Assembly: GCF_036639235.1 (NCBI RefSeq)
Contig: NZ_JAVWJB010000007.1
Coordinates: forward strand, 9,352-73,351
Direction: 5' to 3'
From: Clostridium sp.
GTDB taxonomy: Bacteria; Bacillota; Clostridia; Clostridiales; Caloramatoraceae
DNA length: 64,000 nt
In this document: positions 6,340-54,805 of the stretch, piece by piece
How positions within the stretch are numbered: the first letter of the stretch is position 1
Layout: every line of letters starts with the position of its first letter
Notes under the pieces: generated by a model
Databases searched by the model: none
The model's input: the letters and a program-made list of their open reading frames with translations, nothing else
Told to the model about the DNA's origin: nothing
Program-made: the position numbers and the translations under genes

Positions 6340-6954
6340 TTAATTCATGGTTCTAAAAAGTCCAATTGCCTTACCTAAAATAGCACAGTCTTTAACTATA
6401 ATGTTATCCATAGCTGAGTTCTCAGGCTTTAATACAATATGATCCTTTTCTTTGTAGAAGCGCTTAACTGTTGCACTATCTTCAATTAAAGCAACAACAA
6501 TTTCTCCGTTATTAGCAGTAGAAGTGGACTCAACAATTAAAAGGTCCCCATCATTAATACCAGCTTCTATCATACTAGAGCCTTTAACTTGAAGCATGAA
6601 GGTTTGCTTATTGCTCTTAATATACTCCATAGGTAATGGGAATGTATCTACTATATTCTCAACAGCAAGAATAGGTTCACCAGCAGCAACTTCGCCAACT
6701 ATAGGAACATGTACCATTTCTTTACGAAGCCTTGCATCTTCAACAATTTCAAGTGCACGAGTCTTTACAGGGTCTTTACGAACAACACCCTTTTTCTCAA
6801 GGGAATGTATAACTCCATGAGCAGAAGATGTACTCTTAAATCCGCAGGCAGCACAGATCTCTCTAACTGAAGGTGGGTAACCCCTATCCTGTATTGAATC
6901 TCTTATATAATCTAGAACTATTTGTTCCTTTTCGCTTAGACCTACATTAGACAT
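6340..6954 (-). CDS. lexA: SOS repressor LexA
   Basis: GYPPSVREI HTH; VGEVAAGEP Ala-Gly cleavage site; VKGSSMI catalytic Ser; ATVKR catalytic Lys. Confidence 0.98.
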   Translation of the reverse strand: MSNVGLSEKEQIVLDYIRDSIQDRGYPPSVREICAACGFKSTSSAHGVIHSLEKKGVVRKDPVKTRALEIVEDARLRKEMVHVPIVGEVAAGEPILAVENIVDTFPLPMEYIKSNKQTFMLQVKGSSMIEAGINDGDLLIVESTSTANNGEIVVALIEDSATVKRFYKEKDHIVLKPENSAMDNIIVKDCAILGKAIGLFRTMN

Positions 6955-7005: not shown

Positions 7006-7046
7006 ATTATATCATAGATATAATTCTAAATCAAAACTTACGTTCT
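7006..7046 (-). promoter_or_regulatory. lexA SigA promoter with SOS box abutting the -35
   Basis: Minus strand TTGATT (7029-7034)-17 bp-TGaTATAAT (7006-7011); GAAC-GTAA-GTTT at 7034-7045. Confidence 0.75.
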
Positions 7047-7193: not shown

Positions 7194-7221
7194 TATTTAC
7201 ATAATAAATATTATGTAAATT
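7194..7221. other. dif-like Xer recombination site 1
   Basis: TATTTACATAA TAAATA TTATGTAAATT: 11-6-11 layout, perfect 10-bp inverted arms, right arm 10/11 to the B. subtilis dif arm TTATGTAAACT. Confidence 0.7.
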
Positions 7222-7285: not shown

Positions 7286-7318
7286 AGATGTATTGATTAT
7301 TTAAGGGGAGTGTGTACT

Positions 7319-7618
7319 ATGGAATTTAATAATGAGTTAGATATTTGCGACTTAGATCCATCTAAAATCTGTGATAGCTGCGAAAAATGTCTTGGAATAG
7401 ACACTAAAGACTATAGAGAAATTAGAATTGATGGGGTTGTAGATGAAGATACAGCAAGCCTTAACGAGTTTGATGAGTATAATATTTTTAACCTTGAAGA
7501 AGTGGAAGAAGAAGATACTGATGCAACAAATGAATATGAATTTATAGAGGATATTGAGGAAATTCGCGATATACTTTACGAGGAAAATGAAGAAAATTCA
7601 AATAACCAGGATGCTTAA
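7319..7618 (+). CDS. Small acidic Cys-motif protein (99 aa), function unknown
   Basis: RBS aaggggag 8 nt before ATG 7319 (track starts at GTG 7310); C-x7-C-x2-C-x2-C motif; 36 Asp/Glu versus 6 Lys/Arg. Confidence 0.8.
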   Translation: MEFNNELDICDLDPSKICDSCEKCLGIDTKDYREIRIDGVVDEDTASLNEFDEYNIFNLEEVEEEDTDATNEYEFIEDIEEIRDILYEENEENSNNQDA

Positions 7619-7640
7619 TTTGGCATACCTGGTTATTTTT
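7600..7640. terminator. Bidirectional terminator between small ORF and xer gene
   Basis: aaataaccagg-atgc...gcat-acctggttattt stem with flanking A/T runs. Confidence 0.7.
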
Positions 7641-7649
7641 ATGCTATGT

Positions 7650-7677
7650 AGTTTACATAATATATATTAAGTAAACT
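7650..7677. other. dif chromosome dimer resolution site (site 2), near-perfect palindrome
   Basis: Minus strand AGTTTACTTAA TATATA TTATGTAAACT; last 19 nt identical to B. subtilis dif (ACTTCCTAGAA TATATA TTATGTAAACT); located at the gene-orientation switch. Confidence 0.9.
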
Positions 7678-8665
7678 ACTTTTTTTCTATATTTATATTA
7701 AGATTAGCTAGTGGATTAGATTTAACTGCTGTACGTAATTGATCATCGTCAATATGGGTATATATTTGGGTTGTAGCAACACTTTCGTGACCAAGTATCT
7801 GTTGAAGCGCCCGTATATCAACCCCTCCATGTTTATACATAAGAGTTGCAGCAGTATGGCGAAGCTTATGTGGCGTATATTTATTTGAATCAAGTCCTGC
7901 GTACTCAGCATATTTTTTAACTAATAGTTCCACTGTTCTTTTGTTAATTCTCTTTCTTTGCTCACTTAAAAAAAGAGCATCCTCAAAGCCTGGAAGTGGC
8001 TTTAAACGTATAGATAGATATGCTGAAATCGAGTTTAGACATATAGGGGATAGGTATACTGTACGTTCCTTATTACCCTTTCCAATTACCGTAAGTATAT
8101 CACCTTTTATGCTGCTAATATTAATACCTACAAGCTCTGAAAGTCTTAAACCGCAGTTTAGAAATAGGGCTAAAATGCAAAAGTCACGTTCCTTATTTCT
8201 ACCTACAACAGTACCAAAAACAGATTCAAGTAGGTCCTTACTTTCATCTAAAGTAAGATAAATTGGATGTCTTTTCACACTTTTGGGAGACTCTAAATCC
8301 TTAGCAGGATTGTCTACTATAAGCCTTCTTTTGTTTTCTAAATAATTAAAGAACCCCCTAATAGAAGCTGTTTTTCTAGCTCTTGCAGCAGCAGAATTAT
8401 GACGGGTATTATTAACATACCCTATAAAGGAGTATATGTCTGATAATGTAATGCTTTTTATAAAGTTATCATCAACATTTTTTACACACACATTTTCAAG
8501 TGGAGTTTCTAGAGAATTTCTAAATTTATATACATACTTAATAAAAAGTCTTAAATCGGTTTTATAACCTTCAACAGTATTTGGAGACTTACCTTTAATA
8601 GTAGACAAATATCCTAAATACTCATTAAGTATATATGGAATTTCATTTGGATCATTGTTTTCCAT
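7676..8665 (-). CDS. xerC: Xer-family tyrosine recombinase
   Basis: Full catalytic set: GLRLSEL (R), GKGNKER (K), HKLRH (H-x-x-R), LGHES (H), TQIYTH (Y). Confidence 0.92.
   Translation of the reverse strand: MENNDPNEIPYILNEYLGYLSTIKGKSPNTVEGYKTDLRLFIKYVYKFRNSLETPLENVCVKNVDDNFIKSITLSDIYSFIGYVNNTRHNSAAARARKTASIRGFFNYLENKRRLIVDNPAKDLESPKSVKRHPIYLTLDESKDLLESVFGTVVGRNKERDFCILALFLNCGLRLSELVGINISSIKGDILTVIGKGNKERTVYLSPICLNSISAYLSIRLKPLPGFEDALFLSEQRKRINKRTVELLVKKYAEYAGLDSNKYTPHKLRHTAATLMYKHGGVDIRALQQILGHESVATTQIYTHIDDDQLRTAVKSNPLANLNINIEKK
8481..8499 (+). repeat. 19-bp direct repeat, copy 2 (inside xer CDS)
   Basis: Identical to 7081-7099. Confidence 0.7.
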
Positions 8666-8689: not shown

Positions 8690-8733
8690 ATTTTACCAAA
8701 CATTTCGCTAAATATCAATTTAGCGAAATGTTT
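8690..8733 (-). promoter_or_regulatory. xer promoter overlapped by a perfect 16-bp-arm inverted repeat
   Basis: TTGATA (8713-8718)-17 bp-TAAAAT (8690-8695); aaacatttcgctaaat-atca-atttagcgaaatgttt at 8698-8733. Confidence 0.65.
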
Positions 8734-20448: not shown

Positions 20449-22740
20449 CTATTCATCATAATTTGATAGGTCATCCTTTGAAATAAGCACCTGTCTTGGC
20501 TTACTTCCTTCCTGGGGACCTACTATTCCTCGTTGCTCCATTGACTCTATAAGTCTAGATGCTCTGTTAAATCCTATTCTGAGCCTTCTTTGCAGCATAG
20601 ATGCTGATGCTTGACCATAGTCAACAGCTACTTGAATTGCTTCATTAAGTAGCACGTCATCATCTTCATCTATATGCTTAGATTCAGGCTTAATCTTATC
20701 GATTTCTTCAATAGCTTCTTCTGAGTATTCTTCATCTGAGGATTCTTTAAGGAAGTTAACTATATTCTCAACATCCTCTTCAGATATAAATGCACCCTGT
20801 ACTCTAATTGGCTTATTTTCACCTATCGGAAGAAATAGCATATCCCCTCGTCCAAGAAGTTTTTCTGCACCGCCCATATCAAGGATTGTTCTAGAATCTG
20901 TCTGGCTTGATACTGCAAATGATATTCTACTTGGTATATTAGCTTTAATAACCCCTGTAATAACATCCACAGATGGTCTTTGCGTAGCTATAATTAGATG
21001 CAGACCTGCTGCTCTAGCCATCTGTGAAAGTCTACAAATTGAGTCTTCAACATCTGATGGAGATGCCATCATAAGATCAGCAAGCTCATCAATTATTATA
21101 ACTATTTTAGGCATTTTCTTACCTATGCCCTTTGTTTTAACTAAATTATTATATCCATCAATGTTTCTAACACTATTTTCAGCAAATATTTTGTATCTAT
21201 CATTCATTTCATTTACTGCCCAGTATAAAGCTGATGCAGCTTTTTTAGGATCAGTTACAACAGGAATTAGTAGGTGTGGAATTCCATTATAAATAGAAAG
21301 TTCAACAACCTTAGGATCAATCATTATCATTTTTACATCCTCAGGAGATGATTTATAAATAAGACTTGTTATAAGAGTATTTATACAAACACTCTTACCT
21401 GATCCTGTAGCACCTGCAATAAGTAAATGAGGCATCTTTCCTATATCAGTTACCATACACTTACCTGTAATATCTTTTCCTAGTGCAAAACTAAGATTTG
21501 AACCAAATTCAATAAATTCGTGTGATTCAATTACTTCTCTAAGGGATACCGGTGATACATTTTTGTTTGGAACCTCAATTCCAACTGCTGCCTTACCTGG
21601 TATTGGGGCTTCAATTCTAACTGATGAAGTTGCAAGTGACAATGCTAAGTCATCAGAAAGATTAACTATTTTACTAACCTTAACACCAGGACTTGGTTGA
21701 AGTTCATATCTTGTAACCGATGGTCCACGCCTAACTTGCATAACTTTTGCATCAACATTAAAACTTTGAAGAGTATCCTCAAGTAATTTAGCATTTTCAA
21801 GAAGACTTTTCTTATCATCCTGATTATTAGTTGAATTTATCTCACCAAGTAATTTAATATCAGGAAAAATATATTCCTTTTCTATTATTTCCGTATTAAT
21901 TGACTCAATAGAATCTATTATTGTTACTGCTGATTCCTTTTCTACTTTAGAAGTTTTAACTTCTTTCTTAGCTGAAACATTTGAATCCATAACAGTATAG
22001 AAAGGCTTACTTATATCCTCTTCCTTTTTATCCTTTTCAAATGAATCAAATATTTTAATATCCTCATCAATCGAGGCTGATTTTTCATCTTCATCAATTA
22101 TAATACTAGATGGCTTATCTTCAGTTTTATTAGGAACTTTTTCCTTAACCTTTTTAGCTGCTTCTGCACCATAATTAAATGTGTTTCTAATCTTATCTAT
22201 GATTATGTATAAAATATCTACTAATGATACCTCTGTAATTATAATTGTTAAAATAATTCCTATACATATAAGTATTATATATGTTCCAACACTACCAAAC
22301 ATTAAAATTAGTGGAAGAGCTATTAATTCAGATATTATACCTCCCCCCATTTTTTCCATTCCAAGCTGAGCTGAATATGTTAATTTTTCTATAAATCCTA
22401 CCTGACTTTCCCCTAGGGAATAACCAACATGTATCATTGTAATAATTGTTATTACAAACAAACTTATACATATAAATTTCTTTTCAATTAACATATATCC
22501 TTTTTTTAGTATAAATAAAATTGATGTACCTAGCATTACAATAGGTATTAAATAGGAAGTTATACCAAATAAGCTGAATATTAAATCTCTCATCCATACA
22601 CCAATAAGCCCTGATGGCTTTATATATATACTAAATCCTACTAATATTGAAAATGCAAACAGAAAAAGTCCATATATTTCTGTTTTATATCTTTCCGTAA
22701 TAGAATCCTTTTGTTTTTTATGTTTATTATTTCTTGGCAA
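20449..22740 (-). CDS. ftsK: DNA translocase FtsK/SpoIIIE
   Basis: N-terminal TM helices, HLLIAGATGSGKS, IDELADLM, gamma domain RIGFNRASRLI. Confidence 0.97.
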   Translation of the reverse strand: MPRNNKHKKQKDSITERYKTEIYGLFLFAFSILVGFSIYIKPSGLIGVWMRDLIFSLFGITSYLIPIVMLGTSILFILKKGYMLIEKKFICISLFVITIITMIHVGYSLGESQVGFIEKLTYSAQLGMEKMGGGIISELIALPLILMFGSVGTYIILICIGIILTIIITEVSLVDILYIIIDKIRNTFNYGAEAAKKVKEKVPNKTEDKPSSIIIDEDEKSASIDEDIKIFDSFEKDKKEEDISKPFYTVMDSNVSAKKEVKTSKVEKESAVTIIDSIESINTEIIEKEYIFPDIKLLGEINSTNNQDDKKSLLENAKLLEDTLQSFNVDAKVMQVRRGPSVTRYELQPSPGVKVSKIVNLSDDLALSLATSSVRIEAPIPGKAAVGIEVPNKNVSPVSLREVIESHEFIEFGSNLSFALGKDITGKCMVTDIGKMPHLLIAGATGSGKSVCINTLITSLIYKSSPEDVKMIMIDPKVVELSIYNGIPHLLIPVVTDPKKAASALYWAVNEMNDRYKIFAENSVRNIDGYNNLVKTKGIGKKMPKIVIIIDELADLMMASPSDVEDSICRLSQMARAAGLHLIIATQRPSVDVITGVIKANIPSRISFAVSSQTDSRTILDMGGAEKLLGRGDMLFLPIGENKPIRVQGAFISEEDVENIVNFLKESSDEEYSEEAIEEIDKIKPESKHIDEDDDVLLNEAIQVAVDYGQASASMLQRRLRIGFNRASRLIESMEQRGIVGPQEGSKPRQVLISKDDLSNYDE

Positions 22741-51677: not shown

Positions 51678-52457
51678 TTAGTTTTTTAGTTTTTCTAGTT
51701 CTTCTAATAATTTGTCATTAAGTATCTTAATATGAGTTCCCTTCATTCCAAGAGATCTTGACTCAATAACACCAGCACTTTCAAATTTTCTAAGTGCATT
51801 AACGATAACAGATCTTGTAATACCTACTTTATCTGCAATCTTACTTGCTACTAATAATCCCTCGTTACCATCTAACTCACTAAAAATACGTTCAACAGCT
51901 TCAAGTTCTGAGTATGAAAGAGTTCCTAGTGCTAACTGTACAACAGCTTTCTTTCTAGCTTGCTCTTCTATCTCTTCATTTCTTGATCTAATAATTTCCA
52001 TACTTACGATTGCTGCACTATATTCTGCTAAAACAACATCTTCATCTGTAAAGTCTTTTGAGTATCTTGCTAAGATTAATGTTCCTAATCTTTCACGGTT
52101 ACCTATAATCGGAATAATAGTAATTGTTTTATTACTATTAATATCTTCTTCATATGAATTAAATACTGTATATTCTTTATCTTTAATATTAGCCTTTGTT
52201 TCTGTTAATTGTAATAACATTCCATTATACTCTTCATGGAACTTGTTGTCGCTTAATAATTTGTCTCTAACTAATTCTGCCTCATATTCATCATTAATAC
52301 CATGACCTAATATTTTACCTTTTCTACTTGATACATATACGTTGCATTCAAGTACATCACTTAATGTATCACATATATCTGAAAATAATACTGGCTCCAT
52401 AGCCGTTTTTTGCAGTATTTTATTTAGTCTTCTTGTTTTTTCTAAAAGAGTCGTCAT
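51678..52457 (-). CDS. codY: Global regulator CodY
   Basis: [44 protein letters not shown]. Confidence 0.98.
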
Positions 52458-52711: not shown

Positions 52712-54805
52712 TTATTCAGAAACTTTATCACTAGCAACTTCTTCTTTAACAACTTCTTCATAATCTTTGTTATTACAAATAAGTTTAGTTTCCTTTTTTG
52801 TTGTCTTTTCATATAGCACTTCACCACAAACTGGGCATTTCTTAGCTGTTGGTTTATTCCAGCTAACAAAGTCACAGTCTGGATATCCACTACATCCGTA
52901 GAATACTCTACCCTTCTTGCTTCTTCTAACAACCACCGGGTTTTCACACTTAGGACATGGAACATCAATTTCTTCAAGTATTGCTTTAGTGTTTTTACAC
53001 TCTGGATAATTCGGACAAGCTAAAAACTTTCCAAATCTACCTTTTTTAATAACCATATTTTCACCGCATTTATCACATAGAACATCACTAACCTCAACAG
53101 GCTCTTCAAGACTTATTTTAGCTATTTGTTCCTCAGCTGTTTTAATAAGTTCTTCAAGTGGTGAGTAGAAATTACCTACAACCTCTCTCCACTGCTCTTC
53201 ACCTGCTTCAATTTCATCAAGCTTTCTTTCCATGTTTGCAGTAAACTCTACATTTACTATGTTATTAAAATACTCGATCAATAATTCTGTTACAATTTCT
53301 CCTAGTTCTGTAGGAGCTAATGTTTTTTTCTCTCTTTGTACATATCCTCTATCAGTAATTGTACTAATAATTGGTGCATAAGTACTTGGTCTTCCTATTC
53401 CATTTTCCTCAAGTGTCTTAACAAGGCTTGCTTCAGTATATCTAGCTGGAGGTTGAGTAAAGTGCTGCTTTTTATCAACATCTTTTTGACTAAGAGTTTC
53501 ACCCTTTTCTATATTTGGAAGCTTTTTAGCCTCATCATCCTCTTCAACTTTATAGGTACTTAAGAACCCTTGGAACTTCAGTGTACTTCCTGTTGATTTA
53601 AATGAGTATTCTCCTACTGTAATATCAACAGAAACTGCACTAAATATCGCATCACTCATTTGACTTGCTATGAATCTACTCCAAATTAAGTTATAAAGTT
53701 TATATTGATCATTGGTTAATGATTCTTTTATTTTATCAGGACTTCTCATTGCTGAAGTTGGACGTACAGCTTCATGGGCATCCTGTGAACCACCCTTTGA
53801 CTTATAAACCCTTTCTCCCTTGTAAAGATAATCTTCTCCAAGTTCTTCAAGTATAAATGCTTTAGCTGCCTCTTTAGCTTCATCTGAAAGTCTAGTTGAG
53901 TCTGTTCTCATATATGTAATAAGACCCACAGTTCCTTCACCTTTAATATCTATACCTTCGTAAAGCTGCTGTGCAACTGACATTGTTTTTTTAGTTGTAA
54001 AGTTAATCTTCTTATATGCCTCTTGCTGAAGTGTACTTGTTGTAAAAGGAGCTGGTGGCGTTCTTTTTCTTTCACTATGTTTAACTTCTTCAACAACAAA
54101 ATCTTTGCCATTAATAGCTGTCAGTACCTTATTAACATCTTCCTCACTATCAAGTGGCATTTTAGTCTTGCCTATTCCATGAAATTTAGATTCAAAGCTT
54201 CCACCTTTTGATTTTAGGTTTGCAGTTAACGACCAGTATTCCTTAGGAATAAATTCATTAATCTCTTTTTCCCTATCTGAAATAAGTTTAACCGCAACTG
54301 ACTGAACTCTTCCTGCACTTAATCCCCATTTTACTTTTCTCCATAAAATAGGACTTATTTGATATCCAACCAGTCTATCAACTATTCTTCTTGCTTGCTG
54401 TGCATATACAAGATTAGTATTTATCTTTCTTGGATTTTTTATTGCAGCTTTTACAGCTGTTTTAGTAATTTCGTTAAATTCTATTCTTATATTATCATCA
54501 TCACTAAGTCCTAGTGCATGTGCTAAATGCCATGATATCGCTTCCCCTTCCCTATCAGGGTCGGTAGCTAGATAAACCTTAGTGCTTTTCTTGGCTTCCT
54601 TCTTTAAAGTACTAAGGATTTCTCCCTTTCCTCTAATTGTAATATATTTTGGTTCATAGTTATTCTCAATATCAACGCCAATTTGACTCTTTGGAAGGTC
54701 CCTTACATGTCCCATAGACGCATGGACTTTAAAGTTTTTCCCTAAAAACTTTGCTATGGTTTTAGCCTTGGCTGGTGATTCAACTATAACTAGGGACTGA
54801 GCCAT
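52712..54805 (-). CDS. topA: DNA topoisomerase I
   Basis: IVESPAKAK, ATDPDREGE, SAGRVQS, ITYMRTDS, C-terminal zinc ribbons. Confidence 0.98.
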   Translation of the reverse strand: MAQSLVIVESPAKAKTIAKFLGKNFKVHASMGHVRDLPKSQIGVDIENNYEPKYITIRGKGEILSTLKKEAKKSTKVYLATDPDREGEAISWHLAHALGLSDDDNIRIEFNEITKTAVKAAIKNPRKINTNLVYAQQARRIVDRLVGYQISPILWRKVKWGLSAGRVQSVAVKLISDREKEINEFIPKEYWSLTANLKSKGGSFESKFHGIGKTKMPLDSEEDVNKVLTAINGKDFVVEEVKHSERKRTPPAPFTTSTLQQEAYKKINFTTKKTMSVAQQLYEGIDIKGEGTVGLITYMRTDSTRLSDEAKEAAKAFILEELGEDYLYKGERVYKSKGGSQDAHEAVRPTSAMRSPDKIKESLTNDQYKLYNLIWSRFIASQMSDAIFSAVSVDITVGEYSFKSTGSTLKFQGFLSTYKVEEDDEAKKLPNIEKGETLSQKDVDKKQHFTQPPARYTEASLVKTLEENGIGRPSTYAPIISTITDRGYVQREKKTLAPTELGEIVTELLIEYFNNIVNVEFTANMERKLDEIEAGEEQWREVVGNFYSPLEELIKTAEEQIAKISLEEPVEVSDVLCDKCGENMVIKKGRFGKFLACPNYPECKNTKAILEEIDVPCPKCENPVVVRRSKKGRVFYGCSGYPDCDFVSWNKPTAKKCPVCGEVLYEKTTKKETKLICNNKDYEEVVKEEVASDKVSE

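Follow-up and report, generated by a model that had tools for sequence, protein, structure and literature searches.

A dif-type site at the stop codon of a xer gene, and a second palindrome at its promoter, at the replication terminus of a Clostridium genome

Does XerD act at the replication terminus together with a partner that is not XerC, or does it act alone? The question is raised by a 64,000-nt stretch of a Clostridium sp. genome (hereafter the window, part of contig C7 of the assembly), in which a gene for a Xer-family tyrosine recombinase of 329 aa, here called dXer (7676-8665, minus strand), ends inside a dif-like palindrome and has a second, different and better conserved palindrome upstream of its start codon. 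Two proteins and two short sites are enough to make the question testable. Dimer resolution in Clostridia is poorly charted; the comprehensive survey of dif sites covered only organisms with both XerC and XerD, and predictions for Clostridium failed or looked doubtful. The initial annotation of the locus proposed that the adjacent Xer binds both arms of the palindrome at its own stop codon as a single recombinase. We find that this palindrome has the features of a genuine terminus dif with a XerD-type arm, that the genome encodes an intact XerD, and that the site likely to belong to dXer itself lies at the promoter of its gene.

Re-reading the sequence agrees with the initial description of a 32-bp palindrome with one mismatch pair at 7648-7679 (GTAGTTTACATAATATATATTAAGTAAACTAC), which is an inverted repeat of 16 + 16 nt with zero spacer (no strand is assigned to this or the other palindromes). 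Within it lies a 28-bp dif-type core (7650-7677) of the canonical 11-6-11 geometry that had been claimed for it, with two XerD-type arms, AGTTTACATAA (7650-7660) and TTAAGTAAACT (7667-7677), on either side of the centre TATATA (7661-7666). The first arm, distal to the gene, corresponds on the xer sense strand to TTATGTAAACT, a perfect XerD arm; the gene-proximal arm reads AGTTTACTTAA on the same strand. The arms are symmetric at 10 of 11 positions, with an A/T mismatch at arm position 4 as the sole asymmetry, and because the TATATA centre is itself palindromic, this mismatch is the only source of polarity in the site. The stop codon of xer, TAG, is the complement of 7676-7678; the overlap of 2 nt reported earlier is borne out for the 28-bp core, and the 32-bp palindrome spans the entire codon. 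The dXer gene is the only long open reading frame (ORF) across this region.

The assembly, a 2.18-Mb draft of 109 contigs that is 93.9% complete, contains 46 palindromes of 32 bp in which no more than one pair is mismatched, most of them terminator-like, so that symmetry alone is not the signal; it is the sequence of the site together with its place that exceeds chance. With a weight matrix built from the sites of 14 relatives, the studied genome being left out, the site at 7650-7677 scores 30.4 bits and ranks first in the whole assembly. The second rank (29.5 bits) falls to another palindrome 456 bp away, at 7194-7221, and all other sites score 17.4 bits or less. The cumulative GC skew of contig C7 peaks at position 7776 of the window, ~110 bp from the centre of dif, with a skew near +0.25 to the left of the peak and -0.2 to the right, and genes converge there. 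No other skew inversion of the terminus type is present in any contig of the assembly. In six closed genomes of relatives the orthologous xer gene lies 45-53% of the chromosome away from dnaA, and in nearly all of 33 relatives a local skew maximum falls ~0-2 kb from the xer 3' end. By sequence and setting alike, this 3' palindrome qualifies as a genuine terminus dif with 11-6-11 spacing and arms of the XerD type.

The locus is also found in relatives, among them the named taxa Clostridium cylindrosporum, Fervidicella, Fonticella, Caloramator and Thermobrachium, where the NCBI name of the orthologous protein is 'tyrosine recombinase XerC'. Searching 41 relatives with a loose dif pattern gave too much noise in these AT-rich genomes, and the flanks were fetched and scored instead. 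In eight genomes from six genera of the family (G000, G001, G002, G004, G006, G007, G008 and G009) the site abuts or overlaps the xer stop codon, within 35 bp. In three more genera it lies farther from the xer 3' end, at ~0.74 kb in two Clostridium genomes, 1.3 kb in G003 and 2.75 kb in the Caloramator/Thermobrachium genus, and at 5-13 kb there are candidate sites in two further genera. In the orientation of the xer sense strand, relatives always have TTATGT[A/T]AAC[T/A] as the distal arm; of the proximal arm only ACATAA is constant, and its outer half occurs as AGTTTAC, AATAAAC, TAATTAC, AATATAC or GAATAAC. In several genera a TAA stop codon falls inside this outer half. Every site carries some asymmetry, either in the centre or in an arm.

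The junction between dif and xer is itself a place of change. About 1.3 kb of extra DNA separates dif (2843) from the xer stop codon in G003 (contig C59, xer 605-1540), and dif lies beyond lexA in the Caloramator/Thermobrachium genus, which together indicate that insertions or rearrangements occur right at this junction. In several relatives the terminus region contains two or three dif-like sites. Two perfectly symmetric dif-like 28-mers lie 10-19 kb from xer, at G004:C6:6683-6710 (ACTCTACATAA TATATA TTATGTAGAGT) and at G039:C12:106335-106362 (AGTATACATAA TATTTA TTATGTATACT).

A palindrome between converging genes might also be inactive in recombination, either as a terminator hairpin or as the decaying relic of an ancestral XerC/XerD dif. 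As RNA it forms a weak fold (-11 to -12 kcal/mol), a T-run comes after it on the plus strand, it shares its size with the other palindromes counted above, and XerC is absent from the genome (see below), all of which would suit an inactive site. However, the T-run lies inside the xer coding sequence, and a far stronger, dedicated hairpin stands directly beside the palindrome. This GC-containing hairpin (7600-7638; -21 and -19 kcal/mol for the plus and minus strands, respectively) is likely the bidirectional terminator of xer and of the gene that converges on it at the dif site, an acidic ORF of 102 aa (7310-7618, plus strand), and separate from dif. Moreover, what is shared across genera, and with the dif of Bacillus, is the base sequence of the distal arm beyond mere pairing, and a relic would not be expected to retain 11/11 arm identity in nine genera. 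We consider an inactive palindrome improbable.

Which proteins could act at this site? The assembly encodes four tyrosine recombinases: dXer, in which all catalytic residues are present (R174, K199, H266, R269, H293 and Y302), a XerD on contig C8, and two integrase-like genes on contig C13. The presence of a RipX/XerD speaks against the single-recombinase proposal, and the C8 gene (C8:13770-14627) is an intact XerD: it scores 365.5 bits on the NCBIfam model TIGR02225, above the cut-off of 329.6, and its catalytic residues are intact. The same model is matched above cut-off in 29 of the 40 relatives scored. That XerD binds the 3' dif is very probable, since distant Firmicutes that rely on XerD have the very same distal arm and an intact XerD has been conserved. 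The remaining two genes (C13:81-1322 and C13:46343-47160) lie at opposite ends of their contig, one of them cut by the contig end, and together may mark an integrated element.

A canonical XerC was not found among the four tyrosine recombinases of the assembly, and dXer is the best candidate for that place. It falls short of every curated Xer model that we compared it with: XerC [TIGR02224, 216.4 bits, cut-off 335], XerD [201 bits, cut-off 330], XerA [NF040815, 194.2 bits, cut-off 220] and XerS [NF003462, 154.9 bits in the C-terminal half only, cut-off 267]. Elsewhere in the phylum a canonical XerC scores above cut-off in 75 of 121 genomes. When dXer was searched against the PDB, XerH matched with 63 bits, E. 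coli XerD with 122 and XerA with 120. In trees with these canonical XerC proteins, XerD proteins and the E. coli XerC and XerD, dXer and its homologues form a clade of their own (Shimodaira-Hasegawa-like approximate likelihood ratio test, SH-aLRT, 95-99), XerC and XerD group together (support 96) with the dXer clade outside, and the dXer clade joins other sole-Xer proteins (support 94); these are quick trees with long branches that include no XerS, XerH, XerA or CodV references. Taken together, the phylogeny, which had been named as a check in the initial annotation, and the model scores indicate that dXer is none of XerC, XerD, XerS, XerH or XerA and belongs to a Clostridia-wide clade outside XerC + XerD. 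The widespread database name 'XerC' for this family is corrected by this result.

To describe how dXer and XerD are distributed, we cross-tabulated a dXer protein search with a XerD model search in one set of 150 Clostridia genomes (completeness 95% or more), with E-value thresholds read by hand from the two tables. Both dXer and a XerD-type protein were found in 63 genomes, dXer with a weak second hit in 9, dXer as the only Xer in 36, a XerD-type protein only in 21, and neither in 21. About one third of the dXer-carrying genomes (36 of 108) are thus without XerC or XerD, and in G190 and G291 dXer is the single tyrosine recombinase of the genome. From this gene content, the dXer family can evidently serve alone, and in the studied genome it need not. 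The idea of a single-recombinase system therefore survives for other Clostridia, where dXer is the only Xer, and does not hold for this genome, where XerD is present. The Xer complement of Clostridia as a whole is a mosaic, and many of the genomes with neither protein carry other Xer-like proteins of 350-376 aa. Sole-Xer proteins in other families of the phylum (G147, G063, G057, G084 and G043) fit no curated Xer model; an NCBIfam check of four of these (G147, G057, G084 and G043) as possible XerS was negative.

If dXer can serve alone, it should be asked where it binds. A perfect 16+4+16 palindrome at 8698-8733 (AAACATTTCGCTAAAT ATCA ATTTAGCGAAATGTTT), unique in the genome, is located 33-68 nt 5' of the xer ATG, and its centre is the -35 hexamer of the predicted xer promoter (8690-8718, minus strand; TTGATA, 17 nt, TAAAAT with a TG extension), which is a consensus match only. 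The region 40-100 nt upstream of dXer contains such a palindrome in at least 23 of 30 loci of the order, in 13 of 20 other genomes that have XerD and in ~10 of 20 genomes that do not. Its arms co-vary between lineages, as in CGCTAAAT/ATTTAGCG, ATGCTAAAT/ATTTAGCAT, CGTGAAAT/ATTTCACG, CACAAAAT/ATTTTGTG and TACAAAAT/ATTTTGTA, and the 4-nt centre is freely variable. Symmetric co-variation of the arms is the signature of one and the same protein bound to both. The half-site, TTTCGCTAAAT, differs from the dif arm AGTTTACATAA at 4-5 of 11 positions. When a dif was sought de novo downstream of dXer in 20 genomes without XerD, only terminator hairpins were found, and the conserved site proved to be the one upstream. 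These patterns make the 5' palindrome the likely best candidate for dXer's own recombination site. Its place over the promoter would also allow the role of an autoregulatory operator, whether or not it recombines.

The 5' palindrome also occurs outside cellular genomes. Its motif, TTCGCTAAAT-N4-ATTTAGCGAA, was found in 91 viral contigs of IMG/VR (L248-L338), which represent 72 distinct sequence contexts, whereas the reversed control pattern gave 0; 88 of the 91 loci have no xer gene. The short contigs that we examined are tailed-phage fragments in which the motif lies between primase/HNH genes and the gene of the small terminase subunit, and there it could be used for Xer-dependent integration, multimer resolution or regulation. 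Inovirus-like elements, with a Zot-like ATPase and a rolling-circle Rep, lie directly beside a dXer homologue at L303:116-5970 and L262:2130-7467, and no integrase was found among the ORFs searched in them. The 5.8-kb element of L303 has a degenerate copy of the palindrome on one side and an intact one on the other. This association of the palindrome with phages and inovirus-like elements is seen in other genomes, not within the window. For the 3' dif motif we obtained 47 viral contigs against 43 for the reversed control, hence no enrichment and no sign that integrase-less elements use the 3' site.

These results bear directly on the proposal that the adjacent Xer alone binds both 3' arms and resolves dimers, with XerD uninvolved. 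The linkage of gene and site, as for XerS and XerH, and the near-palindromic arms agree with it, as do the genomes in which dXer is the only Xer or the only tyrosine recombinase and the grouping of dXer with other sole-Xer proteins in the tree. Yet an intact XerD is encoded here, and the arms show the classical two-recombinase pattern, with a distal arm that is the conserved, canonical XerD arm and a proximal arm that varies. The site linked to dXer across the class, also where XerD is missing, is the palindrome at 8698-8733 with its different half-site, and genomes without XerD showed no XerD-arm dif in the vicinity of dXer. That dXer acts alone at the 3' site is in our judgment very unlikely. 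The gene-plus-site module that formed part of the proposal does exist and is conserved in relatives, with the 3' site fused to the xer stop codon; its best-supported site, however, is the 5' palindrome and not the 3' dif.

The reading that we prefer, tentatively and with somewhat less than even confidence, is that the 3' palindrome is a XerD-dependent terminus dif at which dXer substitutes for the missing XerC. Under this reading 7650-7677 would function as a dif-type site for recombination at the replication terminus, XerD from contig C8 would bind the gene-distal arm TTATGTAAACT, and dXer would most likely fill the XerC position on the gene-proximal arm, since the genome has no canonical XerC. 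An FtsK/SpoIIIE translocase with alpha, motor and gamma domains (20449-22740, minus strand; gamma PF09397, 96.7 bits) is encoded ~13 kb from the dif site, and this FtsK, with its gamma domain, would bring the complex to the terminus and activate it there. Drift would have carried the reading frame of xer into the outer half of the proximal arm, where constraint is weak, and would have placed the stop codon inside the site. That this arm is variable and weakly constrained, together with the absence of XerC, makes substitution by dXer the possibility we lean towards, short of a firm conclusion. The sequence of the site, its near-uniqueness, its position at the terminus, its conservation and the gene inventory are observed directly; the assignment of proteins to arms, and the occurrence of recombination, we infer.

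Several observations weigh against this preferred reading. First, dXer is no XerC orthologue (216 bits against a cut-off of 335, and outside the XerC + XerD clade), and it has a conserved, symmetric site of its own with half-sites unlike the dif arms. Second, other families of Clostridia that have both dXer and XerD yielded no XerD-arm dif at distances of up to 6 kb from dXer. Third, across 151 Clostridia genomes the exact dif motif matched in 10, no more than the reversed-pattern control; the motif thus occurs at background frequency in the class, and a link between XerD and the motif is not demonstrable by co-occurrence. Finally, changes that affect both arms symmetrically, which favour one protein on both arms, occur in two relatives, G006 (AGTTAAC/GTTAACT) and G039 (AGTATAC/GTATACT), and at the second dif-like site of the window. 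This site, the palindrome of second rank at 7194-7221 (TATTTACATAA TAAATA TTATGTAAATT), is intergenic between lexA and the acidic ORF and has the same deviation in both arms, AAAT replacing AAAC. It was not found at that position in the sister species G001 and G002, and a site of this type lies 6.6 kb from xer in G004.

The symmetric changes lead to an explanation in which XerD alone would occupy both arms of the 3' dif as a homotetramer, and dXer would act only at its own 5' palindrome, giving two single-recombinase systems side by side. Both arms are of the XerD type and nearly symmetric, they co-vary in the two relatives and at the second site of the window, a XerD-type protein is the only Xer in 21 of the 150 sampled Clostridia genomes, and dXer has a different cognate palindrome. 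Nor would the adjacency of the two sites require a functional coupling: any two sites for dimer resolution would be drawn to the terminus, and their adjacency is no proof that they are coupled. Against it, XerD needs XerC in the characterised systems, and the outer half of the proximal arm, unlike the distal arm, is degenerate in most genera (AATAAAC, TAATTAC, GAATAAC). On balance, we regard XerD acting alone on both arms as doubtful. We would also call it unlikely that two independent single-recombinase sites bracket this one terminus gene, with dXer acting alone at the promoter palindrome and XerD acting alone at the stop-codon dif. If they do, the dXer system would be Clostridia-wide, exploited by phages and undescribed in the literature that we searched.

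We compared the locus with the known systems, of which the XerC/XerD-dif of Firmicutes (CodV/RipX-dif of Bacillus subtilis) is the closest in the site itself. The supplement of Kono 2011 gives ACTTCCTA[G/T]AA TATATA TTATGTAAACT for Bacillus, Staphylococcus and Listeria (PMC3025954), and the studied site shares with it the 28-bp 11-6-11 layout, the XerD arm TTATGTAAACT and the TATATA centre. Shared as well are the terminus position, a XerD orthologue, an FtsK gamma domain and the combination of a conserved XerD arm with a variable partner arm. The studied genome differs in being without a XerC orthologue and in having a partner arm that is XerD-like rather than ACTTCCTATAA (it is not ACTTCC-like). 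It also has its site fused to the Xer stop codon, whereas the classical xer genes lie far from dif, and a second strong dif-like site 456 bp away. We suggest that the 3' site works like a dif of the XerC/XerD type and largely qualifies as one, with the exception of XerC itself.

Resemblance to the single-recombinase systems is one of logic. In XerS/difSL of streptococci and lactococci (PMC1914069, PMC2965235) the Xer gene is likewise physically linked to its site as a terminus module, and the dXer family resembles it in occurring without XerC or XerD in many genomes. But difSL, found upstream of xerS, is 31 bp long and has a centre of 11 bp, whereas the studied site is 11-6-11 and at the 3' end, dXer fails the XerS model (154.9 against 267 bits), and XerD co-occurs in the studied genome. 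XerH/difH of Helicobacter and Campylobacter (PMC3325230, PMC5241119) and XerL/dif of Legionellales (PMC9765430) share the single-recombinase logic, partly palindromic sites, the terminus position and exploitation by integrase-less integrative elements. They differ in belonging to other phyla and in low sequence similarity (XerH 63 bits against 122 for E. coli XerD), and the studied genome keeps XerD. The fusion of gene and site thus resembles XerS/difSL and XerH/difH, and dXer belongs to neither. In this respect the initial annotation was right to set the locus apart from difSL and difH: the centre is 6 bp, the protein fails the XerS model and it is closer to XerD than to XerH.

In the literature searched we found no published description of a Clostridial Xer of the dXer family, of a dif fused to a xer stop codon, or of two different palindromic sites bracketing one xer gene. 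The locus shows that an order of Clostridia has lost canonical XerC and retains XerD with a Bacillus-type XerD arm. It shows further that a Xer annotated as 'XerC' represents a separate lineage, sometimes the only tyrosine recombinase of its genome, with a probable symmetric site of its own that phages appear to exploit, and that both sites lie within 1.1 kb of each other at the terminus, one of them fused to a stop codon.

The genes around the two sites are those of a stable chromosomal locus. The order lexA (minus), acidic ORF (plus), xer (minus), proC and purB is conserved order-wide, and lexA (6340-6954, minus strand) is a conserved neighbour of the Xer/dif locus. We dismissed a role of xer as a mobile-element integrase, given the conserved housekeeping genes (lexA, proC and purB) on its flanks. 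The product of the acidic ORF is very acidic, with an N-terminal cluster of Cys residues, and matches no Pfam or NCBIfam family; the position of the ORF between lexA and xer is conserved across the order at 33-63% identity. The possibility that it is a mobile cassette between two dif-like sites was rejected, the position being kept order-wide and the second site being absent from the sister species. Upstream of lexA a Cheo-box-like sequence (AAACTTACGTTC, 7006-7046) lies beside a predicted minus-strand promoter (TTGATT, 17 nt, TATAAT); it is probably a site of LexA autoregulation, distinct from both palindromes. Farther along the window topA (52712-54805) directly neighbours codY (51678-52457); trmFO, codV and clpQY are missing from the interval, as the initial annotation had stated, and dprA, rpsB and the usual downstream genes follow.

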